Positions 25,492 to 48,669 of a stretch of DNA of 64,000 nucleotides are shown piece by piece. The DNA lies in the sequence record PZ338878.1; one strand, written 5' to 3'. This DNA comes from a phage. Positions within the stretch are counted from its first letter, which is position 1; each line of letters opens with the position of its first letter. The position numbers and the translations under genes are program-made. The notes under the pieces were generated by a model. The model ran no database searches and was not told where the DNA came from. It was given only the letters and a program-made list of their open reading frames with translations.

Positions 25492-25492
25492 T

Positions 25493-25523
25493 AAAAAAGG
25501 AGCCATTAGGCTCCTTTTCTTTT
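25493..25523. terminator. bidirectional terminator at convergence of plus and minus modules
   Basis: A-tract, AAGGAGCC-ATTA-GGCTCCTT hairpin, T-tract; lies between the last plus-strand gene and the last minus-strand gene. Confidence 0.65.
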
Positions 25524-25526
25524 ATC

Positions 25527-25907
25527 TTAATCAGTGAAAATTACGCTCACATCTTCTTTAGAGAAGAGTTTATGATCTTCACCTTTTGTCTCAAGAGTTT
25601 CATACAGGTTAAGAAGTTCTGAAACATCTTTCTCTACCAGTTTCTTCAATGTTGCAATTTTCTGTTTGCGATTCTTAATACGTTCAGCTACAACCTTACG
25701 TTGGTATCCAGCAGTACGATAACCTGAGAAAGTTACACCAGTAAGACTTGCAGTTACAGGATCGTAGTGACGTTCAATCTGAAATTTATTAAAAGGTACA
25801 GCGTCATCACGAATAATCTTACCGCCATTACTTACTTGACGAAGACCAGTAACTTGTTCCAGTCGTGCCATAGAAATCTTTGGAGACAGACCAGAGTCCA
25901 AATTCAT
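25527..25907 (-). CDS. hypothetical protein
   Basis: ORF-track 25527-25958; probable start at internal Met (MNLDSG...) to avoid overlap with the methyltransferase gene. Confidence 0.45.
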   Translation of the reverse strand: MNLDSGLSPKISMARLEQVTGLRQVSNGGKIIRDDAVPFNKFQIERHYDPVTASLTGVTFSGYRTAGYQRKVVAERIKNRKQKIATLKKLVEKDVSELLNLYETLETKGEDHKLFSKEDVSVIFTD

Positions 25908-25914
25908 ACCGTTG

Positions 25915-26646: not shown

Positions 26647-26656
26647 TATATCTCCT

Positions 26657-26686
26657 TCAAAGAAAAGGAGCCGTTAGGCTCCTTAT
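26657..26686 (-). terminator. terminator-like hairpin between SSB and methyltransferase genes
   Basis: AAGGAGCC-GTTA-GGCTCCTT followed on the minus strand by TTTCTTTG. Confidence 0.5.
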
Positions 26687-26706
26687 ATTCACACAATATT
26701 TAATTA

Positions 26707-31423: not shown

Positions 31424-31464
31424 TCTCCCTCCTTAAAATATTTCTAAAGTCTTAATTTGTTAAT

Positions 31465-31493
31465 ACTGTACCATAAATTAATTGTTTTGTAAA
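31465..31493 (-). promoter_or_regulatory. sigma70-like promoter candidate for the DNA polymerase gene
   Basis: On minus strand TTTACA - 17 nt - TACAGT, upstream of the polymerase RBS. Confidence 0.3.
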
Positions 31494-31509
31494 GGGGCTT
31501 TCGCCCCTT
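31494..31509 (-). terminator. GC-rich hairpin downstream of the 31514 gene
   Basis: GGGGC-TTTC-GCCCC stem-loop; weak U-tract on the minus strand. Confidence 0.4.
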
Positions 31510-31513
31510 CTTG

Positions 31514-33704: not shown

Positions 33705-33974
33705 CTAAAATGATTCGTTTGTCTCCATAATATATTGCATTTCCAAATCTTCCATATGTTTCTTAAATTGGTAAACAATTTCCGATGGGGAAATATCTAT
33801 ATCAAAAAGTTCTTTTGTACCAGAATAGAACCTAATACCATCAACAATAAGGCCACCATAATAATCCCAATCACTTTCTCGTGAGAAAGGATTAGGTTCT
33901 TCATAATAGTAATCTACTTCAACAATAATAGGTTCTTTATTATCTTGTTTATACTCAAAATCAAAAGTGTTCAT
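33705..33974 (-). CDS. hypothetical protein
   Basis: 89 aa acidic, Tyr-rich ORF; stop-start overlap with neighbour. Confidence 0.4.
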   Translation of the reverse strand: MNTFDFEYKQDNKEPIIVEVDYYYEEPNPFSRESDWDYYGGLIVDGIRFYSGTKELFDIDISPSEIVYQFKKHMEDLEMQYIMETNESF

Positions 33975-34918
33975 TATAAATCCTCGATAAGCAGTCTGCG
34001 GGTTTCATTTAAATCATCAATATTGTAGTTATCTCTTACATACTTAGCAAGAGCCAATCCTTTCTCAATACAAACATCAGGAGATTCGATTAAGTATTCT
34101 ACAATATCTTTCCACTCTTTAACTGAATCAGCAAAGAAGATTAGATCTTTAAATTCTTCAGTATAGTAGTTCTCTCGTGGAGAACAAACGAGTGGCAAAC
34201 CTTTAGCACCAGCCTCAAGAATTTTTAAATTACTTTTGGCATTATTAAAATGATTATTTACTAACGGAGCTATGGAGATTTGATGACCATCGTATGCTTC
34301 CATATAACACTCATAAGGACGAATACCTTCATAAACACAATCTGGTTGAATATCTTCTTTAATTTGCAACCATTGAGCACTACTTAACTCTTCGTGATCT
34401 CTACGAAATCCACATAAAGTTAAATCTTTACCAAAAGTAGGAAGAATTGCTAAATCATGTTTATGGGTTTCACTTCCAGCCCAAACCAGTGGGCTTTTAG
34501 AATAACGATCTTTAGTAAGAACAAACTGTCCTTCATCAAAAGGTAGTCCGTTAGGCACAATATGTACATTATCATTGTATTGGCTTAATTCAACCTTTAA
34601 TGCTGGAGTTGTTGTAGTTACAAGATCGCTTCTTTCAAGGAACCATTTTAGGTCATCTCGGATTTGATTTTCAAATAATCCTTCCAGCATATGCCCTTCA
34701 GGAATAATTAAAGAATCATCCAAATCCATTACCAATTTAAACCCAAGCTGTTTAAGAGCCAGGAAACCTGGCTTTCCACGAGTTGGTACTCCATTGAATA
34801 CAAAAATATTATGCTTAGGATTAATAGTCAGTTTGCGTTTATATGGCAAAATGATTCTATGAAAGTCACATACACTATACCTTTCATGTCCACGTGTGTC
34901 AAGAATAATATTAGGCAT
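33974..34918 (-). CDS. putative glycosyltransferase (GT-B-like), paralog A
   Basis: Clear paralogy with the next ORF (LPFDEGQFVLTKDRYS...; SNLKILEAGAKGLPLVCSP); C-terminal E..K..E-like block resembles GT1-type nucleotide-sugar-binding region. Confidence 0.45.
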   Translation of the reverse strand: MPNIILDTRGHERYSVCDFHRIILPYKRKLTINPKHNIFVFNGVPTRGKPGFLALKQLGFKLVMDLDDSLIIPEGHMLEGLFENQIRDDLKWFLERSDLVTTTTPALKVELSQYNDNVHIVPNGLPFDEGQFVLTKDRYSKSPLVWAGSETHKHDLAILPTFGKDLTLCGFRRDHEELSSAQWLQIKEDIQPDCVYEGIRPYECYMEAYDGHQISIAPLVNNHFNNAKSNLKILEAGAKGLPLVCSPRENYYTEEFKDLIFFADSVKEWKDIVEYLIESPDVCIEKGLALAKYVRDNYNIDDLNETRRLLIEDL

Positions 34919-34929
34919 ATGGCTCCTTG

Positions 34930-35904
34930 TTAAAGACTTTCAATAACTTGACGACGCAGTTCATTGGCATCTGCAAGATTATAATTAAGACGAACGTGCT
35001 CTGCAAGCATCATACCACGATCTTCTGTGTATCTAGGGTTCCTCATTAGCTTGACAACTTCATAATGCCAAGATGCTTTAGAGTCTGCATAAATAACAGC
35101 CTTTGCATCTACCGGATTGAAGTACGGCAGCACAGGAGAACAGATAATAGGAAGACCCTTTGCACCTGCTTCCAAAATCTTCAAATTGCTTTTACAGTTG
35201 TTGAAGTCATTATCTACCAGAGGAGCAATTGCAATACTGTGACCGTCATACACAGACATATACTCACCTAAATTTTTAATAGCTGGTTTATACTGTGCAT
35301 TTGGAATTTTACGTTTTACTTTAACCCACTCCGCAGTAGTTAGATACTGACTATTATTTCCAACAGGTGCAGAAGGATACACTTCATACCCTGCAATTGT
35401 CAATAGTGTATCATCAAATGTATTAGCTACAAGAGATAAATCAGGTTCATGGCTTGCTCCTCCAGCCCAAATAATAGGCGTGTCAGAATAACGGTCTTTT
35501 GTCAAAGTAAATTGACCTTCATCGTAAGGTAGTGCGTTTCTAATAACGACAACATTACGATTTAAATGACGAATTTTGTAAGCCAGATATTCTGTTGTTA
35601 CAGTAACAACATCTGCTAACTTAATCATCTCTACAATAGTCTTTGAGTGATTAGTAAACACGCCAGCCATATAATGTTCAGGATTAAGTGAATAAAAGTC
35701 ATCTAAATCAACAATAATCTTAACACCTTGTGCCTTCAGGCGTTTAACTTCGTCTGATCCACGAGAATACACTCTATTAAAAACTAAAACGTCTTTCTTA
35801 GGCTTAAACGTATTTCCCGCAAATGGCATTACAATACGATGGTAATCACAACCACTGCCTAACTTATTATCACACTTAAGTACAGGAGTATTAGGATTTA
35901 CCAT
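34930..35904 (-). CDS. putative glycosyltransferase (GT-B-like), paralog B
   Basis: ORF-track 34930-35943; start probably at internal Met (MVNPNTPVL), aligning with paralog A; LPYDEGQFTLTKDRYS and SNLKILEAGAKGLPIICSP. Confidence 0.45.
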   Translation of the reverse strand: MVNPNTPVLKCDNKLGSGCDYHRIVMPFAGNTFKPKKDVLVFNRVYSRGSDEVKRLKAQGVKIIVDLDDFYSLNPEHYMAGVFTNHSKTIVEMIKLADVVTVTTEYLAYKIRHLNRNVVVIRNALPYDEGQFTLTKDRYSDTPIIWAGGASHEPDLSLVANTFDDTLLTIAGYEVYPSAPVGNNSQYLTTAEWVKVKRKIPNAQYKPAIKNLGEYMSVYDGHSIAIAPLVDNDFNNCKSNLKILEAGAKGLPIICSPVLPYFNPVDAKAVIYADSKASWHYEVVKLMRNPRYTEDRGMMLAEHVRLNYNLADANELRRQVIESL

Positions 35905-36577
35905 ATTTTTGAGCCTCCTCATAAGAGATAAAAGTTTTACCATTGCGAAGATCCTCCAGTGATTGTTTATATTGTTCCCAGTTTACACCAATCCCCTGTT
36001 CTTTCTCTTCTTTTGACAGATTCGCAAAAGGTAAAGGGTTGTCTCCAAACACATCATCAGGATGGATAAACGCCATAATTCGAATAGGACATGGTACGCC
36101 CTGAATACCTCGGTTCAAACCTGCCAGTGGAACGCGCTGAATCCACTCTGCATCTTCATATCCATAACCGTGGGTGTATGAGCGGAAATAGCCAGCTTTC
36201 TCAATAACTGCACGGGAATACATACCAAACTGGCACATACCTAGTTCCCAAATAACCACTTCACCTTCAATACCTTTTACTTTATCTTTAAAGTATTCAG
36301 GCATACCAAAGAAATCCCAGCCATTTTCCTTAGCCTGTTTTACAAAATATGTTTCCCAACCTGGCACAACCGGATAGCAATCATCATCAAAAATAAACCA
36401 GTAATCATACCCTTCATCATAAAACTTTTTCATCAGTTCATTACGGGCATATGCAACACCTTTTCGTTCCCGATCATACTGTACAACAAAAGTAGCATTA
36501 GGATCAGTCACAAGATAATCTTTAAGAGGACGCTTACCTACAGTAATAACACCAACACCAATTTTTGTATTTTCCAA
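35891..36577 (-). CDS. putative glycosyltransferase (GT-A-like, DxD motif)
   Basis: YWFIFDDDCYPV motif after an N-terminal Rossmann-like stretch. Confidence 0.45.
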   Translation of the reverse strand: MENTKIGVGVITVGKRPLKDYLVTDPNATFVVQYDRERKGVAYARNELMKKFYDEGYDYWFIFDDDCYPVVPGWETYFVKQAKENGWDFFGMPEYFKDKVKGIEGEVVIWELGMCQFGMYSRAVIEKAGYFRSYTHGYGYEDAEWIQRVPLAGLNRGIQGVPCPIRIMAFIHPDDVFGDNPLPFANLSKEEKEQGIGVNWEQYKQSLEDLRNGKTFISYEEAQKYGKS

Positions 36578-36586
36578 AATAACTCC

Positions 36587-37150
36587 TTAAATAATTTTAT
36601 TCATGTCTTGACAATGTAAAAGGTGTGAAACAGCTTTTCTAGGATCATCGTTACCTAAACGGTATGTGTGAAATAAATATAACCCACGTAGTAAACCTAG
36701 CCTTTTATTGTTAGCGTGTAATGCTTTAGAGAAAATTATATCAAACTGTATTGATCTTTCCTCAAAAGGGATTTCATTCCACAGACTCTTACGAAAGAGA
36801 AGAAAGAATCCTGCTAAGATAGCATCTGTAGGTACTTCCTCTATTGAGTTTCCCCATTCTAGATGTGCTCTTTTTGCAATCTCAATGTGGTGTAATATAT
36901 TTGGATCTTCACTTCTTTCATTATTAAATAATTGATATGTTGATCCCAATCTATTACAAGATGCACCAAGAACATCAAAATCAGGATTTGAACGGACTAT
37001 TGATTCCAACCAAGCAGGTTGTTCTGGAAGAAGAAACATTGTATCAATGTCTCTTAGGCAAATCCAACTATCTTCTGGTAAGACACTTATTGTGTCATTG
37101 ATACCTTTTCCAATATCTCCAGAAAGATAGGGAGTTATGTGAAATATCAT
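36587..37150 (-). CDS. hypothetical protein, possibly glycosyltransferase-like
   Basis: 187 aa; LRDIDTMFL acidic motif; adjacent to glycosyltransferase genes. Confidence 0.3.
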   Translation of the reverse strand: MIFHITPYLSGDIGKGINDTISVLPEDSWICLRDIDTMFLLPEQPAWLESIVRSNPDFDVLGASCNRLGSTYQLFNNERSEDPNILHHIEIAKRAHLEWGNSIEEVPTDAILAGFFLLFRKSLWNEIPFEERSIQFDIIFSKALHANNKRLGLLRGLYLFHTYRLGNDDPRKAVSHLLHCQDMNKII

Positions 37151-37207: not shown

Positions 37208-37402
37208 CTATTGATTACGTTTTGCGAGTTCCATCTGGATAGCTAAACTGTGATCTCGTGCTTCCATATACTCTTTATATGTTTCATTAAGATGATCACG
37301 ACAAACATCACGCAGTTTAATCAGTTTATCTGTAGGGATACCACTAAGATCATCCCAAGACTTTACAACTTCACCAGTATCATTGATCCCAATGGTTTTC
37401 AT
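37208..37402 (-). CDS. hypothetical protein
   Basis: 64 aa ORF. Confidence 0.35.
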   Translation of the reverse strand: MKTIGINDTGEVVKSWDDLSGIPTDKLIKLRDVCRDHLNETYKEYMEARDHSLAIQMELAKRNQ

Positions 37403-37610
37403 CTACAACCTCCTTAATTGCTACAGCACAGTTTTTGCAGATACACTGCCCTTTACCTTTAGAAATCTGGATGTAAGGTTCATTTTCATTTTCGCCCTTA
37501 CGTGAGTCATATATTACAGAATTGAAGCACACAACGCAAATATTTTTTAAGATTGTATACTTATCAACTTTCTTTTTTGTTTTAAAGTTAACTTCAATAA
37601 CATCAGCCAT
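37380..37610 (-). CDS. zinc-ribbon protein
   Basis: ORF-track 37380-37658 trimmed to internal Met; CVVCFNSV ... CICKNCAV four-Cys arrangement. Confidence 0.4.
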   Translation of the reverse strand: MADVIEVNFKTKKKVDKYTILKNICVVCFNSVIYDSRKGENENEPYIQISKGKGQCICKNCAVAIKEVVDENHWDQ

Positions 37611-37888
37611 CAGTGTAACACTCCCAGTATGTTGTTTTGTGACATAACCATAGAACATTCAACATTATCGTGACTACGTGAAAAACGTTCCCAAACATCT
37701 TCATCGACTCGTAAAGCTATACAAGGATAGACGTTATCATTGATCATTTCAATTGAATAAACATCCACATTGTCTTCGTCTTCGATGAACATCATTGCAA
37801 ACTGTTCTAAATGTTTCCTAATGTAATGTACATCCTCTTCTGTAAGACCAATAACAAGATAACTTGCAACGATAACGCCATCTTTCAT
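37610..37888 (-). CDS. hypothetical protein
   Basis: 92 aa acidic ORF. Confidence 0.4.
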   Translation of the reverse strand: MKDGVIVASYLVIGLTEEDVHYIRKHLEQFAMMFIEDEDNVDVYSIEMINDNVYPCIALRVDEDVWERFSRSHDNVECSMVMSQNNILGVLH

Positions 37889-37898
37889 CTATATCTCC

Positions 37899-38408
37899 TT
37901 AGCGATAGAATTGATGTTCTTTGTAGCGGTACACTAGAACCATATCTTTTTCCCAGTGTGCTCTTATTGTAGATTTTTTAAAGTATAATGCTCCTTTTGT
38001 AATATCTAATGCAATTCGTAATTCTGGAAAATGGTTATCGAGATAAAGTAGACGTTCTGCTATAGCTTTAGCGTCTTTCCACTTATCGTGTTCCATAACG
38101 TTGAATGTCTTCGTGTAAGAGAATTGTCCTTTTTGAAACAAAACTTCTTTTATAGTATCAGGGAAATATGAATCTCTCGCCCTATTCAATACTACATTAC
38201 CAACAGCAGACATACCGCGCTTTCCTTGATTACGACTTTCTGCATAGATTGCACAAGCTAATAGATTTTCTTTACTATCACGCTTTGTACACTTGTGAAC
38301 TACTTTAGCAGTTTTTACGTTTGCAGCTTCGGCTTGCGCCACAACAGGTGTAAATGTAAAAGCAGTTAAGGATAGTAACGCAATTGCGACAAAGGTTTTT
38401 ATTGACAA
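37899..38408 (-). CDS. secreted cell-wall hydrolase, SleB/Hydrolase_2 family (candidate endolysin)
   Basis: N-terminal signal peptide (MSIKTFVAIALLSLTAFTFTPVVAQA); CAIYAESRNQGKRGMSAVGNVVLNRARDSYFPDTIKEVLFQKGQFSY resembles SleB-type hydrolases. Confidence 0.65.
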   Translation of the reverse strand: MSIKTFVAIALLSLTAFTFTPVVAQAEAANVKTAKVVHKCTKRDSKENLLACAIYAESRNQGKRGMSAVGNVVLNRARDSYFPDTIKEVLFQKGQFSYTKTFNVMEHDKWKDAKAIAERLLYLDNHFPELRIALDITKGALYFKKSTIRAHWEKDMVLVYRYKEHQFYR

Positions 38409-38471
38409 ACTTGCCTCCTATTTTGTTAAACGAACTTTTATTGTAACACAGAAGAGGCTATTTTGCAAGTG

Positions 38472-38490
38472 GAGGGGGATAATCCCCCTC
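38472..38490 (-). terminator. GC-rich hairpin (terminator or processing site)
   Basis: GAGGGGGA-TAA-TCCCCCTC perfect stem-loop between the 38501 gene and the hydrolase gene; no clear U-tract. Confidence 0.35.
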
Positions 38491-38500
38491 TTACACTCTG

Positions 38501-39103
38501 TTAGATATTGTAAACCTTTGTATGAGTTACTACACCATCTTCTACAAAATCAATACGTTCTTGATCCGTAACTAGTGCAGACAACACTTTAAATTTAATT
38601 TTTACACGTTCAAAAGCTGGTTGACCATCTTTAAGATAATTATGTTCAGTTGTCACTGTCTTGTTTACAAAATCAACTTTTGCTTTACCGTTCTCGCGTA
38701 AGTGGAATGTTTTTCCTGCTTTATACACAATTTCAACATTACCTTCGAGAGTAATTCCTTCAAAAAGTTCACCCTCTTCTTCATTTTCTTCACTTTTGAA
38801 CAGACGACGAAACTCTTCCATATCAAGATAAACAACATCTTCAGAATAACTATCAGTAAGATATGTCTTACCCTCCATTAACCCGAAATATTGCCAGATT
38901 GCCGAATAAACATCACTAGATGATCCAAGGGTTTCTCTGAGTTTAGTTCCACGGATTACTTCATAAACTTCAAAATTGAAACCAGACTGCAAAGCATCAA
39001 ACAGCACATCACTAACTTCTAAAGCATAATCTTCATTGTTGTCAATATCTACAAGAAAATTGCCGCTACGAATAAGTTTTTGACCTTCTAAAGTAATACT
39101 CAT
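38501..39103 (-). CDS. hypothetical protein
   Basis: 200 aa acidic ORF. Confidence 0.45.
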   Translation of the reverse strand: MSITLEGQKLIRSGNFLVDIDNNEDYALEVSDVLFDALQSGFNFEVYEVIRGTKLRETLGSSSDVYSAIWQYFGLMEGKTYLTDSYSEDVVYLDMEEFRRLFKSEENEEEGELFEGITLEGNVEIVYKAGKTFHLRENGKAKVDFVNKTVTTEHNYLKDGQPAFERVKIKFKVLSALVTDQERIDFVEDGVVTHTKVYNI

Positions 39104-39167: not shown

Positions 39168-39764
39168 TTACTCGAACCAATCGTCGCCAGCGCCAAACGC
39201 TTTAACTACATCGTAAATGTCAAGCCCAGCTTTACCTACACCATATGCTTTCAGTTTCCATTCGCTATCTTCTCGCACCAGGGAGGCAACGTGGCAAATG
39301 GTGTTACCTGCAAGTTCTGGAGCCAAGAAGTCAAAGTCCAGCAGTTCAACATTACGTTCATCATCGAAGATTTTAAGGAAACCTTCGGTAGCGTGACCAA
39401 GGCGTTTCTTACCCGTTTCGTCATCAATAGTAATTACGAATGCAATTTCCTGTGCTTCAGCAGAGATATTATCCAGTGTAACATCAATCTGCTCCATCTG
39501 TCCTACACCATCACGAACATCTTCACCTGCAAAAGTAGAACGTTCAGGATCAAATTTCTGTGCGTAGCACACCAGGTGACGAGGAGACAACAGTTCCGGC
39601 AGACCAGATGCATTGTGTCGGCAAATCAGAGCACTAACATCCAGATCCAGTTTTTCGTTAGATTTCCAAGAGAATTCCAGACGAATGCGTTTCAGTGCTG
39701 GTGCGATCTTTTTCAGAGAAACTTTTTCGCTAGAACCTTTTTTCAGGGAAATTTTCTGAGTCAT
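39168..39764 (-). CDS. terD: TerD-domain protein
   Basis: ISLKKG...VSLKK, DLDVSAL, FAGEDVRDG, EIAFVITIDD, EWKLKAYGVG match TerD-family hallmarks. Confidence 0.8.
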   Translation of the reverse strand: MTQKISLKKGSSEKVSLKKIAPALKRIRLEFSWKSNEKLDLDVSALICRHNASGLPELLSPRHLVCYAQKFDPERSTFAGEDVRDGVGQMEQIDVTLDNISAEAQEIAFVITIDDETGKKRLGHATEGFLKIFDDERNVELLDFDFLAPELAGNTICHVASLVREDSEWKLKAYGVGKAGLDIYDVVKAFGAGDDWFE

Positions 39765-39837
39765 AATTTATTATCTCCTTTGTTGTTAATTTACGTTGTC
39801 TATTTTACTAATCTTTTCTACAAAGTCAAGCGTTTTT

Positions 39838-40632
39838 TTACGCTTTTGCTCCGAATTTTTTAACCCACTCACCAAACTCTTCAGATAACAATTTATCGTA
39901 AAGTTCTTCATCAGACAAGGACAAATCTGCAATACCGATAAAATCAACATTATCGTACTCTTTTGCCAAGTCTTTCAGGAATTTAAAGTTTGCATTACCT
40001 ACACCAACCATAAACCAGTAAACAGGCGTATTGCGGTGTTTGTTCAGTAAGCTACGTACTGCTGAAGTATCCATGTTTTCCCCGTCAGTTTGGAAGAAAA
40101 TCATTGCAGGAGTACGATCAACTTGTGCATCAGTATCTACAACCTGTTCTACAACAGTACGTGTTACTTCTACAAGTTCTTTTTTACCAGTTAGTTTAGC
40201 AAGGAAACCCTTAGCTGGGACTTCTTCATACTCAACGACTTCGCGTGTAATATTTTTCATAGGTACACTACCGAAGTATGTATCATAGATCTCCTGCATT
40301 ACTGGAGCATAAGCAGTACCACCATTGATGCAAACATTAGACATGCAAGAGCCGACATAATCATCATACACATCAGCCGTTGCAGGAGGCAGTTCAAAAG
40401 AAGAACTATTGAAAGCCCACATGTCAATCTGTGCATTGTCATCAAACTTCATACCAAACGGCAGCAGTTTACCTACAAAATCACTAACAGTGCCATCACG
40501 ATACAGCTCACACATACTACCCGAAATATCTAAGGCGCTACCGACACGAAGAACAACATCGTTAATCTTTTTCTTACGCAGAGATACAGTAAGAGTTTCT
40601 TGACGTTTTTTAAGACTGATTTTATTGGACAT
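39838..40632 (-). CDS. vWA-domain protein with TerD-like N-terminal motif (TerY/TerF-like)
   Basis: N-terminal ISLKKRQETLTVSLRK then MIDAS-type DISGSM. Confidence 0.6.
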   Translation of the reverse strand: MSNKISLKKRQETLTVSLRKKKINDVVLRVGSALDISGSMCELYRDGTVSDFVGKLLPFGMKFDDNAQIDMWAFNSSSFELPPATADVYDDYVGSCMSNVCINGGTAYAPVMQEIYDTYFGSVPMKNITREVVEYEEVPAKGFLAKLTGKKELVEVTRTVVEQVVDTDAQVDRTPAMIFFQTDGENMDTSAVRSLLNKHRNTPVYWFMVGVGNANFKFLKDLAKEYDNVDFIGIADLSLSDEELYDKLLSEEFGEWVKKFGAKA

Positions 40633-40633
40633 A

Positions 40634-40903
40634 TTATTTCTCCTTTCTGAGTGTAATGTTAGTAACTTCTAAATCCACTTCTACCATTTCTGTATCATAT
40701 GAAATACAGCTAAGTTGACCTCTTTGTGAACCGTTCAGACACATTGCTTGGTTTGTATTAACTTTAATAAACACTAAGTTTCTGAACGTATCTAAACCAG
40801 AATCTTGATACGCAACATAATATACGAATGTATCACCTGCGTCAAGTTCTCCAAAACATTTAGGTTCATCTGATTTATCGTCTTTGATATTAAATTTAAG
40901 CAC
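40634..40903 (-). CDS. hypothetical protein
   Basis: 89 aa. Confidence 0.4.
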   Translation of the reverse strand: MLKFNIKDDKSDEPKCFGELDAGDTFVYYVAYQDSGLDTFRNLVFIKVNTNQAMCLNGSQRGQLSCISYDTEMVEVDLEVTNITLRKEK

Positions 40904-41459
40904 TGTCTTCTCCTTTACCTGCCCTCCAGCCTAAATAGAAAGCCTCTCTGGTGATCTTTTGCAACTCGTTTAAAGAGATAGTTACAACTAAATTATCTTC
41001 AATTTCTAGCTTTGAGTCTTCTTCTGTCTCAATGCAAGTATTATGCACTTTGTGGTAAGGATTGTCAACACGTTTAAATTTATTATTTTCAGTGCTGAAG
41101 AAGCAATCTGGATCTTCTTCTCCATCACCCCAACCCTGGTTAGGGTCTTCTTCAGATCTTTCTGTTGGGATCTCACCTGTAAAGTGCTCTTCTAATACCA
41201 TAGCGATACCATCTCCAAGATCGGAAGAGAACATCAAATTACAAACTTCTTCCCAAGGCATAGACCACTTAAATCTTTTACGATTACCATGTTTATCTTC
41301 TTCGTTAGAGAAAACACTACCATAGCTATCATAATTGCCATACATCTCTTCAACAACTTTACCACCTTTCAAAAGAAATAGGTAGCAAGGAGAACCATCG
41401 AAAGAGGTAGAAAGAGCAGCATTGCCAGACTCTTTGCACAAGAAACTAAAACACCCCAT
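40896..41459 (-). CDS. hypothetical acidic protein
   Basis: 187 aa; C-terminal motif LNELQKITREAFYLGWRAG. Confidence 0.45.
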   Translation of the reverse strand: MGCFSFLCKESGNAALSTSFDGSPCYLFLLKGGKVVEEMYGNYDSYGSVFSNEEDKHGNRKRFKWSMPWEEVCNLMFSSDLGDGIAMVLEEHFTGEIPTERSEEDPNQGWGDGEEDPDCFFSTENNKFKRVDNPYHKVHNTCIETEEDSKLEIEDNLVVTISLNELQKITREAFYLGWRAGKGEDSA

Positions 41460-41659
41460 TATACACCAGCCTTAAGATCAATTAAAGCCAAAGTTGTTTC
41501 AGAATGTGTTTGCTCGTCTACAGGTGCAGTCATATGATAATACAAAAAGTCTTCGGCATCATACCAATCTGATTCTTGACCTTGTTTCCAACCATCAATG
41601 AAAGCATCCTCCATAATGGTTTGTAATTCTTCACGAGTTAAGTGAATATCTTTATTCAT
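41459..41659 (-). CDS. hypothetical protein sharing motif with upstream neighbour
   Basis: 66 aa; N-terminal LTREELQTIMEDAFIDGWKQG. Confidence 0.4.
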   Translation of the reverse strand: MNKDIHLTREELQTIMEDAFIDGWKQGQESDWYDAEDFLYYHMTAPVDEQTHSETTLALIDLKAGV

Positions 41660-41892
41660 TACACATTCTCCTCTTTTACCAATTCCATCGTTGAACTATC
41701 AAAACCATCTTTAGAAGAATAGGTATAGACAGAACGTAGTTCTCGCAGGACAGTAAATACATTAGGATCATCTAACCAAGCATCCTGGAGGAGAACATAA
41801 CGATCTTCATTGTCATACTGGACAGCAATCATAGAACCAGACAGTTTGTAAATTTTAATATTCATAATATATTTCTCCTTAAAGTAGACCAC
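41659..41892 (-). CDS. hypothetical protein
   Basis: 77 aa. Confidence 0.4.
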   Translation of the reverse strand: MVYFKEKYIMNIKIYKLSGSMIAVQYDNEDRYVLLQDAWLDDPNVFTVLRELRSVYTYSSKDGFDSSTMELVKEENV

Positions 41893-42982
41893 GTTTAACA
41901 GTTTGAATCATACCATCTTCAAGAGATTGCACTTCTTGAATGTAATCAATACGAGCAGCACGGGCTTCAGTGTTGATTCGGTTAGTTTCTTCCAACATTT
42001 TAACTAAGTTTTCTTGATCGCGACGTAATGTTTCAATATCCAATACTTGACGATTAGCAAGTTGCGTAGCTTCAATTTGGTTTTGTGCAGCCAGATCACT
42101 ACCCATTGCAATAGCAGCATTAAATTCATTCAGTACATTGTTCTGTGTATCGGCTGCTTTCTTCTGGCGTAGACTTTCAATATACATAGAAAAGTTTGCA
42201 GAGTAAGCAGGAATAACATTATTCACAATATTACGGGCTGATCGCATCAAACTTGCAGATACTTTCTGCATACTTTGTACACGTGGCCCCATCTGAACAC
42301 ACAGTAAACGCAAGGCTTTCAGGTCTGCAATACGAATTTCAAGCAGATCCATAGTATCACGAGTACGTTGACGCTCTTCTACTTCATTTTCAGGTAGTGT
42401 ATTAAGGCGAACTTCTTCTTTTTCATAAGTAGCTGTTAGAAGCTCTATATCCCTGTTTAAGCTAAGAGCATATTTTGCAATAGCCTCTTCTAAACGTTGC
42501 AGATATCGTAAAGAATCTTCTTCTTTTTTCAAGTCTGTTTGGAGTGTCTTTACCAAACCTTCAATACGATTATTGATGGTGTCAAATTCACCAAACAAAT
42601 CTTCTTTCATACCTAATACTTTCTTAACTAGTTTACCTAAGCCTTTAGATTGTTTAATAGAATTAGGATCAAGTTGCTTTGCTTGCTTAATAAGTGCAGT
42701 TAAACGCTCACTCATTTCATCTCCCTGAGATGAACGCTGGTGTTTAAGCACTTCCGCATTAAGGTTACGAAGAGTAAGTCCTGCATCAGCACCAACCTGT
42801 TCAATCTCTTCACGAGACATTGGAGGCAGCATTTGTACAGGTCGTGCAACAGCAGGGGCATATACAGGGCTTGCATCCATAGCAGTTGGAGCAAACAAAG
42901 ACTTACTTTTTTCTGTTGTTGCCGTGAATACACTCATTTCAGACGGTTTGCTTTTTACGGCACTGATAAAAGGACTGGACAT
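41879..42982 (-). CDS. telA: TelA-like toxic anion resistance family protein
   Basis: 367 aa, largely helical/coiled-coil, with size and pattern resembling TelA/KlaA; context with TerD/TerC. Confidence 0.55.
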   Translation of the reverse strand: MSSPFISAVKSKPSEMSVFTATTEKSKSLFAPTAMDASPVYAPAVARPVQMLPPMSREEIEQVGADAGLTLRNLNAEVLKHQRSSQGDEMSERLTALIKQAKQLDPNSIKQSKGLGKLVKKVLGMKEDLFGEFDTINNRIEGLVKTLQTDLKKEEDSLRYLQRLEEAIAKYALSLNRDIELLTATYEKEEVRLNTLPENEVEERQRTRDTMDLLEIRIADLKALRLLCVQMGPRVQSMQKVSASLMRSARNIVNNVIPAYSANFSMYIESLRQKKAADTQNNVLNEFNAAIAMGSDLAAQNQIEATQLANRQVLDIETLRRDQENLVKMLEETNRINTEARAARIDYIQEVQSLEDGMIQTVKRGLL

Positions 42983-43050
42983 TCAATTTCCTCCATATTC
43001 TTTAGTAGATGGTGATACCTCTGTACCACCATCATAACACAAATTAAGTA

Positions 43051-43902
43051 TTAAACAAACATATCTAAATAATTTGTAGTAATAAATGCTCCATCTGCTT
43101 CCAGATTAACATAACCAGTAGCATTAGTGGTTAAGAAATCCAGATCGAAGGACTCTTTAACACCCCGTACCTCAACACGAGAGATATCGAATACAGGTAG
43201 TGTAACAGCCTCTTCGTGCAATACCGTACCTTTGTAGGTTGCCTTAATGATAAACTTGATATTACCCGTTCCCGCATCATACAAAACACTTTCAAAGCCT
43301 TTGAGAGTATACTTATCACCAGAGGTGAAGTGCAAAGTTGCTTTGTTTACAGTACGTTTTTTACGAGGAGTTCCTTTCACACGTTTATGATCACTACGTT
43401 TTTTGTATTTAGGAATGAATACAAACGATACACTCTCAAGAAAAGTATCAACATCAAGGATTTTAATATCCTCTGTTGCAGCAAATTTTGAAGTCGTTGC
43501 ATCAAAATGCTTTGCTCTGCGATCATACATAAAGATATCAAACCGATCTTCTAAATCAAACAAATTGTGTATCTTAATTTCAGAATGCTTGCACATTGCA
43601 GCAACCTTAAACTCTTCAAAACGTGGGTGTTCTACAAGCTCTTCAAGTTTTACACCAAAGACAGTATATTGTTTCGAAGTTTTTTCTGGCGTTGGCATTA
43701 CAGAAGCATAATCACCGATTGCGCTTTTAAAGCAAAATTGTTCTTGACCTGTATTTTTACCAACGAATTTACAGTATTCGTCATCGTGCATACTTTCTTT
43801 GGTAGTACCAACAAACTCAAAACCATCTTTATTCTTCTCAAGAATTTCTTGATTAAAGATCCAACCTTCCAGGCGATACACTTTACCAACTTCTAGTTTC
43901 AT
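43051..43902 (-). CDS. hypothetical protein
   Basis: 283 aa; basic patch KKRSDHKRVKGTPRKKRTVNK. Confidence 0.45.
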   Translation of the reverse strand: MKLEVGKVYRLEGWIFNQEILEKNKDGFEFVGTTKESMHDDEYCKFVGKNTGQEQFCFKSAIGDYASVMPTPEKTSKQYTVFGVKLEELVEHPRFEEFKVAAMCKHSEIKIHNLFDLEDRFDIFMYDRRAKHFDATTSKFAATEDIKILDVDTFLESVSFVFIPKYKKRSDHKRVKGTPRKKRTVNKATLHFTSGDKYTLKGFESVLYDAGTGNIKFIIKATYKGTVLHEEAVTLPVFDISRVEVRGVKESFDLDFLTTNATGYVNLEADGAFITTNYLDMFV

Positions 43903-43937
43903 CTGTTTCTCCTTCTTATTTAATCTGTATTAAATTA

Positions 43938-44543
43938 TTAACGACGACGTGAGCTACTAAAACTACGTTTCGACGAAGAATAACTTTTCGAAGACTTACT
44001 ATAAGAGCTAATAGGGCTTGAGTAAGACTTACGAGCAGAGTAATCACTATTCACTTTTGTTGTTGATGGGCGTGAATACGTTTGTACACTTTGCTGCTTA
44101 ATTGTGTTTTGTTTAGTTGTTGTATATGTATTCCCTTGTTTATCATAAAAACTATGCTTTTGTGTTGTATATGATTTACTGTTAGTTGTAGGAGCAGCGT
44201 TGTTATTAATAATTGTTGTATTGCTACCGCCATCTCTATAACCACCACCGCCACTATTACCACTCAACATATGACCAAGAAGCATACCTGTAGCAAATTC
44301 ACCTACACCAGAAGAACCACTGCCGCCTCCTTGCACAACAACTGTTGAAGGCTGTGCAGGTGCTGCTTGAACAACTTGAGGTGCAGGTTGATTTACATAT
44401 TGTTCATCTACCATCTGATTTGGTGTCTGTTGGTAACGTTGGTTTTGTACATTTTCAGAATCATCACAACCTACCAGCAATGCACTACCTAAAACAACTG
44501 CAACAATAAAAGATTTAATGTTTTTCATTTGTAACCCTCTCAT
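43938..44543 (-). CDS. lipoprotein with Gly-zipper segment
   Basis: Signal peptide with lipobox (VVLGSALLVG-C); Q/P-rich linker; GGGSGSSGVGEFATGMLLGHMLSGNSGGGG; S/Y/T-rich basic C-terminus. Confidence 0.55.
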   Translation of the reverse strand: MRGLQMKNIKSFIVAVVLGSALLVGCDDSENVQNQRYQQTPNQMVDEQYVNQPAPQVVQAAPAQPSTVVVQGGGSGSSGVGEFATGMLLGHMLSGNSGGGGYRDGGSNTTIINNNAAPTTNSKSYTTQKHSFYDKQGNTYTTTKQNTIKQQSVQTYSRPSTTKVNSDYSARKSYSSPISSYSKSSKSYSSSKRSFSSSRRR

Positions 44544-44721
44544 TTAAAGTCTCGACACAATTTTTAAAATCTCTAGAGAAACAATACATCTGTTCTCCGT
44601 TCCTGTTGATAGTAATTGTATGGTTATCAACATATGTTGTCAAGATAAAAATCAAACAAAATAACCCTAAAGCAAAACAAATATTTTCAAACAGAATCCA
44701 AAGAACACGTAAAACCACCAT
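44515..44721 (-). CDS. small membrane protein
   Basis: 68 aa; N-terminal TM helix; GAGGTGA RBS; overlaps 5' end of lipoprotein ORF. Confidence 0.3.
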   Translation of the reverse strand: MVVLRVLWILFENICFALGLFCLIFILTTYVDNHTITINRNGEQMYCFSRDFKNCVETLNERVTNEKH

Positions 44722-44736
44722 CAGATCACCTCAATA

Positions 44737-44757
44737 AAGCCCCCGAAGGGGCTTAAT
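44737..44757 (-). terminator. terminator-like hairpin downstream of terC
   Basis: AAGCCCC-CGAA-GGGGCTT followed on the minus strand by TTTATT. Confidence 0.45.
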
Positions 44758-44760
44758 AAA

Positions 44761-45738
44761 TTAAGCAACAGACTGGTCTTCTTTTTCAGGGAAGATTAAA
44801 CTTGCAATAACACCCAGCCCCAGAGTACCTAACACAATATACATACTGATCGTCGGATCAATGTGTGCTGGCAGGAAACTCACTTTTGCGTGCAGAGTTT
44901 CTGCAAACGGGTGATACATCAGTTTTACACCCACAAATACCAGGACTACGATAACTGCTTTCTCCAGATGAACCAAATATTTCAGTGCAACACTAAGGAC
45001 AAAGAACAGAGCACGCAGACCTAAAATTGCACACAGCATTGAAGAAAATACAAGCAGAGGTTCTTGTGTCACTGCAATTACTGCTGGAACAGAGTCTACT
45101 GCAAAAATTACGTCAACCATTTCCATTACAAATACACAAACCAATGCAGGAGTTGCTACACGAACACCATTTTTGATTGTGAAGAACTTCTCACCATCCA
45201 TCTGATCAGATACAGGGAACAGCTTACGAACAATGCGAGTAGCCCAGTGCTTAGAGTAATCAACTTCTGCGTCATTATCTCCAGCAAATACCATTTTAGC
45301 TGCACAGAAAAGGATGACCGCACCGAAGAAGATATTAACATACCAACCCAAACTCAACAAGTAAGTGCCTACTGCTACAAACACACCTCGGAAGACAATC
45401 GCACCTGCAATACCCCAAAGTAGAATCTTGTGTTGCAAGTGTGTGCTTTTAATACCAAAACTTGCGAATACTGCCACAAATACTACTAAGTTATCTACAG
45501 AAAGAGATTTCTCCAACACATACCCACTCAAAAACAAGCTCGCAAAATCAGCACCGTGTTGGAAGTATACAAAACCATAGTAGGCTAACGATACCCCAAT
45601 CCAGAAAATTGACCAGCCAATTGCAGATTTAAATGAAATTTCTTTGTTTTCTCTGTGTCCAAAGAAATCAATACAAATCGACAAGACTAAAATACCCACT
45701 AAAACAACCACATCAATAATTGGGAAACCCAGTTGCAT
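44761..45738 (-). CDS. terC: TerC-family integral membrane protein
   Basis: 325 aa with multiple TM helices and the TerC-type LEKSLSVDNLVVF motif. Confidence 0.8.
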   Translation of the reverse strand: MQLGFPIIDVVVLVGILVLSICIDFFGHRENKEISFKSAIGWSIFWIGVSLAYYGFVYFQHGADFASLFLSGYVLEKSLSVDNLVVFVAVFASFGIKSTHLQHKILLWGIAGAIVFRGVFVAVGTYLLSLGWYVNIFFGAVILFCAAKMVFAGDNDAEVDYSKHWATRIVRKLFPVSDQMDGEKFFTIKNGVRVATPALVCVFVMEMVDVIFAVDSVPAVIAVTQEPLLVFSSMLCAILGLRALFFVLSVALKYLVHLEKAVIVVLVFVGVKLMYHPFAETLHAKVSFLPAHIDPTISMYIVLGTLGLGVIASLIFPEKEDQSVA

Positions 45739-45756
45739 TCTTTTCTCCTCTTTAAT

Positions 45757-45775
45757 GCGGAGGACAATCCTCCGC
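45757..45775 (-). promoter_or_regulatory. hairpin in terC 5' leader
   Basis: GCGGAGGA-CAA-TCCTCCGC perfect stem-loop 18 nt upstream of the terC RBS; no U-tract. Confidence 0.35.
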
Positions 45776-45815
45776 TCTATGTCGTATACTATAAACTGTT
45801 TTTAAAGAAAGTCAA

Positions 45816-46064
45816 CTAGTTCAGTTCTGTAATTTTAAGTTTATCTTCTTTGTTAATGATAGGGAAAGCTACAGCATCACCTACATCATCAATAAAGCAA
45901 ACAGCAAGACCACCTTCCACTTTGCTAACCTGACCATTAAAGGCGTGATACGGGGCAGGAACAATATCTCCATCTTCAAGGAGAATAGCCTCATAAACCT
46001 TACCAATAGTACAATCACGAGTGTTTTTAAATTTTTCAAGCACTTCAACATTTACTTTACGCAT
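45816..46064 (-). CDS. hypothetical protein
   Basis: 82 aa. Confidence 0.45.
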   Translation of the reverse strand: MRKVNVEVLEKFKNTRDCTIGKVYEAILLEDGDIVPAPYHAFNGQVSKVEGGLAVCFIDDVGDAVAFPIINKEDKLKITELN

Positions 46065-46078
46065 ATAAAGATCCTCTC

Positions 46079-46285
46079 TTATTTGTTAGATTGAAAGATA
46101 CCACGAAGTACCGCAAGAATGAACGTCACACAGACTACACTCCAAAACGTTACAGGAACATGATGCCAGTCTAAGCCGATAATGTCAATCATATAGTTGT
46201 ATGCTAAAAGCAGTAGCCAACTAGGGATTAACACAATCAAGAACACAACAATAAAACAACCTAATACTGCTAAAACACCTGCCAT
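46079..46285 (-). CDS. small membrane protein (two TM helices)
   Basis: 68 aa; VLAVLGCFIVVFLIVLIPSWLLLLAY and FWSVVCVTFILAVL. Confidence 0.45.
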   Translation of the reverse strand: MAGVLAVLGCFIVVFLIVLIPSWLLLLAYNYMIDIIGLDWHHVPVTFWSVVCVTFILAVLRGIFQSNK

Positions 46286-46294
46286 ACTTTCTCC

Positions 46295-47011
46295 TTATTT
46301 CAGTTTGTAAACAATTACATTTAAACCTTTGTTCACTAGAGTTTCTTCGATCATAAGTTTTACAATATTCCAAGAACCTCCAGCCAAACCACAACCAAGC
46401 ATTGGTAAACCTACAATTTTACCGCCTGAAGATACAACATCGTCTCCCATACTATCTAACGCATTGTAGATAGCTTCATAATTCAGGTCACGCTTACCTT
46501 CCTCACGACGACTATAACCATATTGTCCATATAAATTATAAATTGTCAAATTGTTTTCTGTATACTTAGTAAACGTACCTAATTTTTTATAATCACCACG
46601 TTTAGTGGCACAATCTGCTTTAAACGCACCAGGCCACTTGCTTTTAATTTTTGGTGCAATACCACTACCCATAGTGCAAAAACAGTTACAGCAGTGTGCT
46701 ATAGCGTCTATATCGCCTCTCTCTGCTGCTGCTAAAAGATCACCGTATACCTCAATGATACCTGGTGGATAACTTGTTACAATTTCATCTTCCCAGTACA
46801 TTTGCTCTACACCACCGATCAGTGCAAAGTTTTGTGTGATGCGATCATCAATATAATTAAGACCTGAAACATACACAGCATATTCATCCTGTGCTGTAAT
46901 GCCTTGTACACGAATTCTTAAGACACCATCTTTATCTGTTGCTACACGCCCAAAATCTTTTTCTGTAATATTGGTGATAGGATCTCCGAAAGTCGTCACT
47001 TTATTAGACAT
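46295..47011 (-). CDS. macro-domain protein (ADP-ribose binding/processing)
   Basis: ORF-track 46295-47077, start at internal ATG with AAAGGGGA RBS; GDIDAIAHCCNCFCTMGSGIAPKI and LPMLGCGLAGGSW resemble macro-domain motifs. Confidence 0.55.
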   Translation of the reverse strand: MSNKVTTFGDPITNITEKDFGRVATDKDGVLRIRVQGITAQDEYAVYVSGLNYIDDRITQNFALIGGVEQMYWEDEIVTSYPPGIIEVYGDLLAAAERGDIDAIAHCCNCFCTMGSGIAPKIKSKWPGAFKADCATKRGDYKKLGTFTKYTENNLTIYNLYGQYGYSRREEGKRDLNYEAIYNALDSMGDDVVSSGGKIVGLPMLGCGLAGGSWNIVKLMIEETLVNKGLNVIVYKLK

Positions 47012-47073
47012 AATAATCCCCTTTAACATTAGATTTGTTGATAATGTTGCTTTCAAAAAATTGACGCAGGAAA

Positions 47074-47862
47074 TCAAAGTTCTCTTTGTATTTTTTCAAT
47101 ATTATTGTAACCTTCTGCAAGGCAACCAAAGAACAGTTGTTCTACATAATACAAAGGAAGTTGTGAAAGTGCAATTTTAAAATCAACTTCGCTTTGACTC
47201 ATTAGATACTTAATAGGACGAACCAAACATTTAGCATCAGTTTCTTGCTTAATCATTTTAATAAAAGCTGCCAAGTTATTGATATAGTTGAAGTTAAGTG
47301 CAGCTTCGGTGTTGGCTTCTGTACCTTCATACTTTGCAAAGTACAGGAAAAACGTATCGTTTTCAACACCTTCTTTGTCTAAAATTTCAATAAGTTTTTC
47401 TTCGTGTGTTCCTGTAATATTAACATCATCAATGAAAATCAGAGTTTTATTACCCCAGAAATCACGATTGATAGAGAAAGTGTCACCATCGATCAAAGCC
47501 TTACGATCTTCTTTGCTAAGAAATCCATAATCATTGATATAACTCACTTTACGATGAACGATATCCCACTCTACTGCTTTACCTCCTTTGATAGAGATTA
47601 GGTAGTTGAGGTGATCTACAAAATGCTCAGATAACACTGTAGCTGCATTTTTCACATAGTTATATGGAGATGGAATAACAACAAAACTTTCATTTGCCAG
47701 TCGTTCTTCATACTTAGAAAAGAAACTTTCAGCCAAAATGCGCCCCATTCTTTTTGCTGCCTGGTTACTACCAAACTTTAGTTTGGAATAATCTGCAATA
47801 TTAAATTTTGCTTCCTTCAGGTTAGTAAAAGTATTAGCAAAATGTTGAATTTGATTACGCAT
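47074..47862 (-). CDS. phosphoribosyltransferase (PRTase)-like protein
   Basis: PRPP-binding-type motif KTLIFIDDVNITGTHEEK. Confidence 0.6.
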   Translation of the reverse strand: MRNQIQHFANTFTNLKEAKFNIADYSKLKFGSNQAAKRMGRILAESFFSKYEERLANESFVVIPSPYNYVKNAATVLSEHFVDHLNYLISIKGGKAVEWDIVHRKVSYINDYGFLSKEDRKALIDGDTFSINRDFWGNKTLIFIDDVNITGTHEEKLIEILDKEGVENDTFFLYFAKYEGTEANTEAALNFNYINNLAAFIKMIKQETDAKCLVRPIKYLMSQSEVDFKIALSQLPLYYVEQLFFGCLAEGYNNIEKIQREL

Positions 47863-48511
47863 TAATAAGTTCCTCTTTTTTAAGTTTAGCCAACAAGTCT
47901 TCTGGATTAATAATATGACAGAACTTCATCCCTATGTCAACAGCTTTTCCATCATAAATCAAACTATCTCCAACGTGTAAAATCTCCTCTGGTGCGAGAT
48001 CAAACGTTACCATTTCATCAAAAGAGAGTTTAAAAAACCTAGGATCTGGTTTACACAAGCAAAACTCATCAGAAAAATGCATAAAGTCAAATGGTAATTT
48101 TGTTAAGCCAGAATATACAGCTAAGAAACTACCTGGTACAAAATTAGTATTGCTCTTAATACTCAAAGAATAGATTGAACTCAGCTCTTCCAATTTCTTG
48201 CAAAGCTCAGGGTTCAATATTGGAGGATGTTTTATAAACATTGCTAAACAGTCTCTTTTTAACCCATCCACTTTATCAAGATCAATGTTCAAACGAGTAG
48301 AAAGTGTTTCCCAAGCATTCCTAGACGTTCCACAAATGCCTTTTTCTGCTTTTAAATCCAGGAGAGTTTTTACCTCTTTATATACGGTAGCTGCTTCTGC
48401 CTCAGAACAAGAGGCATACTCGGCAATAACCTTGTTGCGTTCTTCTGCATACAAAGGATTAGCAGTAATAAGAGTATTCCATACATCAAAAGAAATATGC
48501 TTAACAGTCAT
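47855..48511 (-). CDS. HAD-superfamily hydrolase-like protein
   Basis: ORF-track 47855-48529, start at ATG 48511 after GGAGG; motif I-like FDVWNTL, motif III K in CKPDPRFF, motif IV HVGDSLIYD. Confidence 0.5.
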   Translation of the reverse strand: MTVKHISFDVWNTLITANPLYAEERNKVIAEYASCSEAEAATVYKEVKTLLDLKAEKGICGTSRNAWETLSTRLNIDLDKVDGLKRDCLAMFIKHPPILNPELCKKLEELSSIYSLSIKSNTNFVPGSFLAVYSGLTKLPFDFMHFSDEFCLCKPDPRFFKLSFDEMVTFDLAPEEILHVGDSLIYDGKAVDIGMKFCHIINPEDLLAKLKKEELINA

Positions 48512-48513
48512 TT

Positions 48514-48669
48514 TTAATCCTCCGTCCAAAAGAATATCATCTGCTTAATTTTATTGATCTCTTGATGTAGTAACTTTCCAGCATGTGATTGATCTTTAAT
48601 ATTGACAGCAAGAATTTCAAGCTCCGTTAGTTTTTCCTGAATAGCTTTATATTCATCATCTGTAAGCAT
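48514..48669 (-). CDS. small helical protein (about 51 aa)
   Basis: Unlisted short ORF (MLTDDEYKAIQEKLTELEILAVNIKDQ...) with purine-rich RBS, filling the gap between the 48681 ORF and the HAD gene. Confidence 0.25.
   Translation of the reverse strand: MLTDDEYKAIQEKLTELEILAVNIKDQSHAGKLLHQEINKIKQMIFFWTED

Follow-up and report, generated by a model that had tools for sequence, protein, structure and literature searches.

A SleB-like cell wall hydrolase with a predicted Sec signal peptide in phi92-like Escherichia phages: a putative accessory enzyme of the periplasm

A phage gene for a SleB-like cell wall hydrolase, situated far from the structural genes and coding for a protein with an apparent export signal, raises the question whether its product is the lysis enzyme of the phage or acts on the wall in another capacity. 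The gene lies in a stretch of 64,000 nucleotides of phage DNA (record PZ338878.1), the whole of which is referred to here as the window. The window region shares 99.7% identity with Escherichia phage EC.P2 and 98-99% with many genomes of Justusliebigvirus, which comprises phi92-like E. coli myophages of about 148 kb classified in the Stephanstirmvirinae. It corresponds approximately to 67.35-131.35 kb of KMB37, the relative whose complete genome was examined. An earlier note on this DNA had proposed Sec-dependent export of the hydrolase and a holin-independent or pinholin-style lysis. In the current analysis the hydrolase is considered rather likely to be an accessory Sec-exported periplasmic muralytic enzyme, second to a canonical lysozyme/spanin pathway.

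Catalytic domain and N-terminal segment of the hydrolase

Positions 37899-38408 correspond to exactly one open reading frame, which codes for 169 residues on the minus strand (Table 1). The protein matches the Pfam family Hydrolase_2 (PF07486, 'Cell Wall Hydrolase') with an E-value of 7.4e-20 and 71.9 bits, above the curated gathering score of 27 bits, and the match extends over residues 61-168 of the protein and positions 2-100 of the 100 in the profile. Among PHROGs it matches phrog_938 ('endolysin') best, and its only sequence matches in the PDB are the SleB entries 4f55 and 4fet. An AlphaFold2 model built from an alignment of 17 homologues has a mean pLDDT of 81.6 with a folded part that begins at about residue 37, residues 1-32 having pLDDT below 50 and no secondary structure. 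When the model was compared with the PDB using Foldseek (E<=0.001), the SleB catalytic domains (4fet, 4f55) were the sole matches, with a probability of 1.00 and target-normalised TM scores of 0.71-0.74.

Glu57 of the hydrolase, within IYAESRNQ, pairs with the glutamate in VYGESRGE of SleB and is invariant in the 17 aligned homologues, as is the motif surrounding it. The catalytic glutamate of SleB has been reported to be essential to its lytic transglycosylase activity (PMC12331253). Cys40 and Cys52 are nearly invariant among the aligned homologues and recur in those of the rV5-like phages, Seunavirus and Certrevirus; this pair is a candidate for a possible periplasmic disulfide. Neither a second Pfam domain nor, in the AlphaFold2 model, a structured N-terminal domain has been found in the hydrolase, and the gap between the signal peptide and the catalytic domain is of about 10-30 residues only. 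The Hydrolase_2 match, the restriction of the fold matches to SleB and the invariant Glu57 uphold the identification as a SleB-like cell wall hydrolase that had been made in the earlier note, and the open reading frame is confirmed, at the level of sequence, as a real gene with a SleB-type muralytic domain.

The Bacillus enzymes SleB and CwlJ (4f55, 4fet) have the same catalytic fold and glutamate motif, and SleB is likewise made as a signal-bearing pre-peptide. Bacillus SleB shares an identity of only about 25% with the hydrolase, however, and belongs to spore germination in contrast to the phage setting considered here. The N-terminal three-helix peptidoglycan-binding domain of SleB is absent from the hydrolase, which is therefore closer to CwlJ. 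Bacillus SleB needs muramic-delta-lactam, and the murein of E. coli does not contain it; the activity of the hydrolase on the host wall is thus an assumption. Its substrate would have to be ordinary Gram-negative murein, as against the muramic-delta-lactam cortex degraded by SleB. To our knowledge there has been almost no biochemical characterisation of the SleB-type family outside Bacillus spores.

The N-terminus of the hydrolase, MSIK-TFVAIALLSLTAFTFTPVVAQA/EAANVK (a slash marks the predicted cut here and below), has on rule-based inspection the n-, h- and c-region layout of a signal peptide for Sec and signal peptidase I. The charge of the n-region is that of Lys4 alone, Pro21 is found at -6 and small residues occupy -3 and -1 (AQA/E), with three consecutive AXA-type sites following the hydrophobic segment. 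Homologues at 61-98% identity have kept the hydrophobic core and the small residues at -3 and -1, with insertions and deletions in the c-region. Signal-like N-termini with AXA-type sites are also seen in distant phage homologues, namely those of T5 (MKAAWLLVAALTFSFSSQA/SH, ending ...SSQA/SH) and Murica (...SLPVVA/AP), and the predicted signals of the Seunavirus and Certrevirus CB7 homologues end in ...TPVLA/KE and ...APALA/KE respectively. The homologue in the Pakpunavirus PAK_P4 has a hydrophobic N-terminal segment without an AXA site. These features, together with the retention of the pattern in homologues, agree with the earlier description of the signal as cleavable-looking, and it is plausible that residues 1-26 form a cleavable Sec signal peptide.

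When 1.84 billion representative sequences were scanned in full with HMMER, 5,946 of them proved to be related to the hydrolase (E<=0.001). An N-terminal hydrophobic segment or a lipobox is present in 142 of 153 representative homologues, and the export signal is therefore the norm of the family and not a special adaptation of this phage. The 22-residue uncharged stretch of the hydrolase has a mean Kyte-Doolittle hydropathy of 1.69 and a Gly/Ala/Ser/Thr fraction of 0.45, which is similar to the 0.50 of what we take to be the corresponding segment of P1 Lyz. Since 45% of the segment consists of these residues, an uncleaved SAR-type anchor stays conceivable, and the long hydrophobic segment could be a SAR domain.

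Table 1. Predicted features of the hydrolase gene and its upstream region, with Ter-type genes and small envelope-targeted proteins; positions are those of the window.
Feature	Position	Strand	Description or basis
CDS, 169-aa SleB-like (Hydrolase_2) pre-protein	37899..38408	-	TTG start, stop 37899-37901; Pfam, PHROG, PDB, Foldseek
Predicted Sec signal peptide, codons 1-26 (MSIK, TFVAIALLSLTAFTFTPVV, AQA/EA)	38331..38408	-	Rule-based features, homologue conservation
Predicted mature enzyme, residues 27-169, Hydrolase_2 catalytic domain	37902..38330	-	About 16.8 kDa, pI about 9.6, SleB fold match
Cys40 (38289-38291) to Cys52 (38253-38255)	38253..38291	-	Sole two cysteines of the mature protein
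Glu57 codon	38238..38240	-	phmmer alignment to 4f55/4fet, on catalytic glutamate of SleB YGESRGE motif
Ribosome-binding site GGAGG	38414..38418	-	5 nt ahead of the TTG start, by sequence
Sigma-70-like promoter TTGCAA-17 nt-TACAAT, TG extended -10	38440..38468	-	Sequence pattern; conserved in Phapecoctavirus relatives
G+C-rich hairpin GAGGGGG-ATTAT-CCCCCTC	38472..38490	-	Between preceding gene and hydrolase promoter
TerD	39168-39764	-	Pfam
vWA-TerF-like	39838-40632	-	Pfam
TelA	41879-42982	-	Pfam
TerC	44761-45738	-	Pfam
Macro domain	46295-47077	-	Pfam
ComF-like PRTase	47074-47862	-	Pfam
HAD hydrolase	47855-48529	-	Pfam
Lipoprotein, LVGC lipobox, 201 aa	43938-44543	-	
Single-TMD protein, 68 aa	44515-44721	-	
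Two-TMD protein, 68 aa	46079-46285	-	
Signal-peptide-like protein, 138 aa	59582-59998	-	
Two-TMD protein, 88 aa	60932-61198	-	

Gene neighbourhood, promoter and start codon

A distance of 12 kb separates the hydrolase gene from the structural block, which is encoded on the other strand. It heads a co-directional run in which three small soluble proteins are followed by four glycosyltransferases. The latter are four consecutive genes in the same direction (33974-37150, minus strand) known as glycosyltransferases from the annotation of relatives; a Pfam scan of one of them (36587-37150) gave no match. Directly upstream of the hydrolase is a cluster of Ter-type stress-system genes (39168-48529, minus strand), all members of which score above the Pfam gathering thresholds. 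A number of small envelope-targeted proteins, all on the minus strand, are also encoded among the Ter and replication genes, and those scanned against PHROGs match only families of unknown function. In KMB37 a complete dTDP-rhamnose pathway (rmlABCD-like) is encoded at 23820-27081, with only a glutaredoxin gene and one small ORF between it and the gene of a T4 e-type lysozyme.

The hairpin and the sigma-70-like promoter ahead of the gene are kept in the Phapecoctavirus phages ETEC-TG and phiWec188, whose hydrolase protein is about 75% identical, with a different hairpin loop. The hairpin was considered as an intrinsic terminator and rejected, as the terminator scan made no call; being without a T-run, it is not a canonical intrinsic terminator. 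The pairing of a G+C-rich hairpin with a sigma-70-like promoter recurs in intergenic regions of the window (31424-31513, 38409-38500 and 45739-45815). The pair ahead of the DNA polymerase gene (31424-31513) is nearly identical to its counterpart at the hydrolase (38409-38500), the hairpin being upstream of the promoter in both, and before terC (45739-45815) the hairpin is downstream of the promoter.

Promoters of the same sigma-70 type as this TTGCAA-17-TACAAT site are found ahead of portal, tail and baseplate genes of the genome type as well, and a similar genome-wide spread of such sigma-70 promoters has been described for rV5 (PMC3606486). As the same promoter type is found before structural genes, the hydrolase promoter gives no timing information, and a deduction of early expression from it was rejected. 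The location in an 'early region' that had been assigned to the gene agrees with its early-type neighbours (DNA polymerase, primase/helicase, glycosyltransferases and Ter genes), but the promoter places it in no temporal class; we infer this location from the neighbourhood only.

A non-ATG start codon is found in five of the six homologue sequences compared, which come from four lineages: TTG in the window, ETEC-TG, phiWec188 and the Seunavirus NINP13076, and GTG in Murica. Such weak start codons would be compatible with a low dosage of a potentially toxic product.

Orthologues and related enzymes in other phages

Dozens of GenBank records contain genes annotated as 'cell wall hydrolase', 'putative cell wall hydrolase' or 'endolysin' whose products are 97.6-99.4% identical to the hydrolase protein. 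It is assigned as the orthologue of the 'cell wall hydrolase' that every phi92-like phage (Justusliebigvirus and Phapecoctavirus) has. The orthologues of phi92 gp165, such as those of KMB37 (WQN06879.1), ECGD1 and BME3, have the same genome position between the TerD cluster and the glycosyltransferase genes. There is no difference of substance between the window and these genomes, and the window represents another isolate of the genus. Among related database entries, records of 'Campylobacter phages' with C. jejuni as host (MG065639, MG065645, MG065656, MG065689 and others) share about 98% identity with genomes of phi92-like E. coli phages, and other records of the same series match rV5-like genomes; the naming looks like a database host or label problem and these do not look like true Campylobacter phages.

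The SleB-like proteins of the Vequintavirinae (Murica gp2, those of Seunavirus, and CB7_83) have the same architecture of signal peptide and Hydrolase_2 domain; they are 34-41% identical to the hydrolase in alignments that cover about 95-99% of the query. The T5 protein T5.083 has the same single-domain architecture, with an identity of about 36% over the C-terminal 75%. The cysteine pair and the catalytic motif are both kept in the Vequintavirinae proteins, whereas T5.083 keeps the motif and only the second cysteine position.

The gene context differs between these groups. Downstream of the gene, the window has soluble acidic proteins and glycosyltransferases, whereas the Vequintavirinae gene is beside rIIA/rIIB; upstream, the gene in the window has its own hairpin and promoter where a T-run terminator would otherwise be. 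In Murica, which is rV5-like, nothing separates the SleB-like gene from rIIA, and in the Seunavirus NINP13076 the gene is just upstream of rIIA/rIIB. A protein of 57-65 residues with two TMDs is encoded directly downstream of the SleB-like gene in NINP13076 (3024-3197 of the stretch read) and in Certrevirus CB7 (CB7_82, 3019-3216 of the stretch read); that of NINP13076 has a basic C-terminus and is followed by rIIA/rIIB. The authors of the CB7 study considered the small two-TMD protein after CB7_83 as a class II holin candidate, and mentioned a signal peptide in the SleB-like homologue and its toxicity on expression in E. coli ('data not shown') (PMC7344957). This gene pair of Seunavirus and Certrevirus looks like an exported lysin with a pinholin. 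The partner gene is present in these two groups and absent from the phi92-like genomes.

The T5-like, rV5-like and Certrevirus phages resemble the phi92-like phages in having a separate canonical lysin beside the signal-bearing SleB-like enzyme. T5 encodes lys (T5.040) and a holin (T5.041), and in addition the signal-bearing T5.083 in a block with annotated early promoters. The lysin of rV5, gp89, belongs to PF00959 (PMC3606486), and Certrevirus CB7 has an M15 peptidase besides CB7_83 (PMC7344957). In a CRISPRi-ART screen T5.083 was scored 'Not Fit', as were T5 lys and several virion genes; since T5 lys itself has this score, the result is uninformative either way for T5.083. A Tn-seq preprint deals with phages unrelated to these.

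Endolysins that reach the wall through Sec are exemplified by Lys44 of the Oenococcus phage fOg44, with a cleaved signal peptide, and by the SAR endolysins P1 Lyz and R21 of phage 21. Each is the sole endolysin of its phage and is paired with a holin or pinholin. The hydrolase would resemble them in being muralytic and in using Sec rather than a holin hole to reach the wall. It differs from them in its coexistence with a cytoplasmic lysozyme, in having no adjacent holin and in its catalytic family.

Lysis genes of the genome type and the role of the hydrolase

A T4 e-type lysozyme of 166 residues, which matches PF00959 and has no signal sequence, is encoded at 22896-23396 of KMB37. It was found by tblastn at 97.6-100% identity in every Justusliebigvirus record among the matches listed, including EC.P2 and phi92 (gp061), and is labelled 'baseplate hub subunit and tail lysozyme' in RefSeq. 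An overlapping gene pair beside the terminase gene of KMB37 matches 'Rz-like spanin' PHROGs (i- and o-spanin); its products are an N-terminally anchored coiled-coil protein and a lipoprotein starting with MMTGC. In the list of Kongari et al. (PMC6139136), phi92 and phAPEC8 form a family of two-component spanins. The lysozyme and spanin loci of this genome type fall outside the window. Their presence in the genome type indicates that the phage is equipped with spanins and a cytoplasmic lysin of the conventional kind, at scattered loci as in T4, and it is most likely that the T4 e-type lysozyme and the Rz/Rz1-type spanins carry out a canonical holin-gated lysis. The signal-less lysozyme fits a canonical, cytoplasmic, holin-dependent endolysin, and the signal-bearing hydrolase does not. 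The coexistence of two enzymes has been remarked before: 'two endolysins' were stated for BME3 (PMC12210895), one being a lysozyme and the other a hydrolase homologous to SleB, and 'two lytic proteins' with PF00959 and PF07486 domains for iGC_PHA_EC001 (PMC10793346).

The observation that no holin or spanin gene adjoins the hydrolase gene holds, since in none of the products of its three flanking genes (38501-39103, 37610-37888 and 37380-37658) does hydrophobicity rise to the transmembrane threshold. Pfam scans of nine structural proteins are consistent with the claim that the hydrolase is the only recognisable peptidoglycan hydrolase in the window. Of the small membrane proteins noted earlier, those at 46079-46285 and 60932-61198 do have two hydrophobic segments and that at 44515-44721 has one, but no holin family was matched by these three or by the product of 13943-14188 in Pfam and PHROG scans. 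A partner holin was also sought by homology to the two-TMD proteins of Seunavirus and Certrevirus and rejected, as no ORF of the window or of KMB37 scored below E=0.65 with phmmer.

Two other small proteins encoded on the plus strand of the window may be mentioned. Within the tail-fibre gene block, 13943-14188 codes for a protein of 81 residues in which a single hydrophobic segment exceeds the threshold and another falls short of it; the C-terminus is charged (RWGRSPAPDKEDN), and the PHROG match is to 1322 ('membrane protein'). In BME3, proteins of 61 and 81 residues have been mentioned as two candidates for a 'topology II holin' (PMC12210895); the window protein has the length of the larger and is plausibly a holin. 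The product of 17875-18216, encoded just upstream of the colanidase tailspike gene, has 113 residues, with a transmembrane helix at the N-terminus and a coiled coil after it. Its PHROG matches are 15210 ('lipoprotein') and, at the weak level of E=9e-4, a family of Rz-like spanins; the recognised spanin pair is elsewhere, by the terminase gene.

The proposal of Sec-dependent, holin-independent or pinholin-style lysis has thus to be divided. A plausible export signal and the lack of an adjacent holin or spanin gene are in its favour, but as the main route of lysis it is opposed by the separate T4 e-type lysozyme and the spanins of KMB37. The earlier note had regarded a separate canonical endolysin-holin cassette, with this protein being non-lytic, as an argument against its own proposal; half of that arrangement has been found, in the canonical T4 e-type lysozyme outside the window.

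In the preferred reading, that of an accessory enzyme, the Sec-type signal peptide (residues 1-26) would carry the SleB-like pre-protein across the inner membrane, where signal peptidase I would probably cut after AQA. The basic mature hydrolase of about 16.8 kDa would act on the sacculus from the periplasm, possibly stabilised by a disulfide between Cys40 and Cys52, and by homology to SleB the reaction would be of lytic-transglycosylase type, with Glu57 as its only catalytic acid. No holin would be needed for the secreted enzyme to gain access to the wall, and by weakening or remodelling the wall the enzyme would contribute to lysis without being its sole cause. Export, the place of the cut, action on the murein of E. 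coli and an accessory role are all inferred.

The hydrolase might instead be the principal endolysin, exported through Sec in a cleaved or SAR-tethered form and activated by a pinholin or holin on collapse of the membrane potential, but this we consider improbable. Some probability is retained because of the SAR-like N-terminus, weakly hydrophobic and rich in Gly/Ala/Ser/Thr, and because of the holin-like neighbour immediately downstream of the homologue in Seunavirus and Certrevirus, with its 57-65 residues, two TMDs and charged C-terminus. The 'endolysin' label of PHROG 938 also points this way, as does the position of the gene against rIIA in Murica and upstream of rIIA/rIIB, with a small membrane gene between, in NINP13076. 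The reading is weakened by the signal-less lysozyme in the same genomes and by the lack of a membrane protein beside the hydrolase gene in this phage or of a homologue of the Seunavirus/Certrevirus protein anywhere in the phi92-like genome. The AXA-type cleavage sites, with Pro at -4 to -6, that are kept across lineages argue against it as well, and an export signal that is normal in the wider family is no lysis-specific adaptation.

A periplasmic enzyme might also remodel the wall for purposes other than lysis, such as loosening of the sacculus during infection, action against superinfecting phages or against envelope defences of the host, or joint work with the Ter cluster and the glycosyltransferases. 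In T5, the rV5-like phages, Pakpunavirus and the phi92-like phages the neighbours of the gene are always of replication, nucleotide-metabolism or early type, and in none of these lineages is it part of a lysis cassette; in the window it heads a transcription unit that runs into the four glycosyltransferase genes; the TTG or GTG starts, seen in all but one of the six sequences compared, would fit a low dosage. We nevertheless regard such a role as unlikely for the hydrolase, as the promoter, of the same sigma-70 type as those before structural genes, carries no timing information and the neighbourhood varies by lineage, with rIIA in the rV5-likes as against glycosyltransferases in the window. 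Phage peptidoglycan hydrolases encoded outside lysis cassettes are sometimes virion enzymes, and the hydrolase is small and basic, which would suit either a virion-associated lysin for DNA entry or a catalytically dead wall-binding protein. Both are highly improbable: a Sec signal peptide is incompatible with cytoplasmic virion assembly, the gene is distant from the structural block and in opposite orientation to it, and the invariance of the catalytic glutamate and of its motif is contrary to a dead protein.

The hydrolase gene is already known, being annotated in dozens of genomes, and the arrangement of two lysins has been remarked upon in several genome papers. For lysin engineering the hydrolase offers a compact, basic and putatively muralytic domain from a phage of Gram-negative bacteria. 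A wider proposal, which we put forward as speculative and with little confidence, is that in at least three unrelated lineages (phi92-, rV5- and T5-like) large virulent coliphages keep, beside their endolysin proper, a Sec-exported enzyme of lytic-transglycosylase type for a task other than terminal lysis, such as pre-conditioning or remodelling of the sacculus or an interplay with superinfection and defence at the envelope. If true, this would define a class of periplasmic phage 'accessory murein enzymes'.
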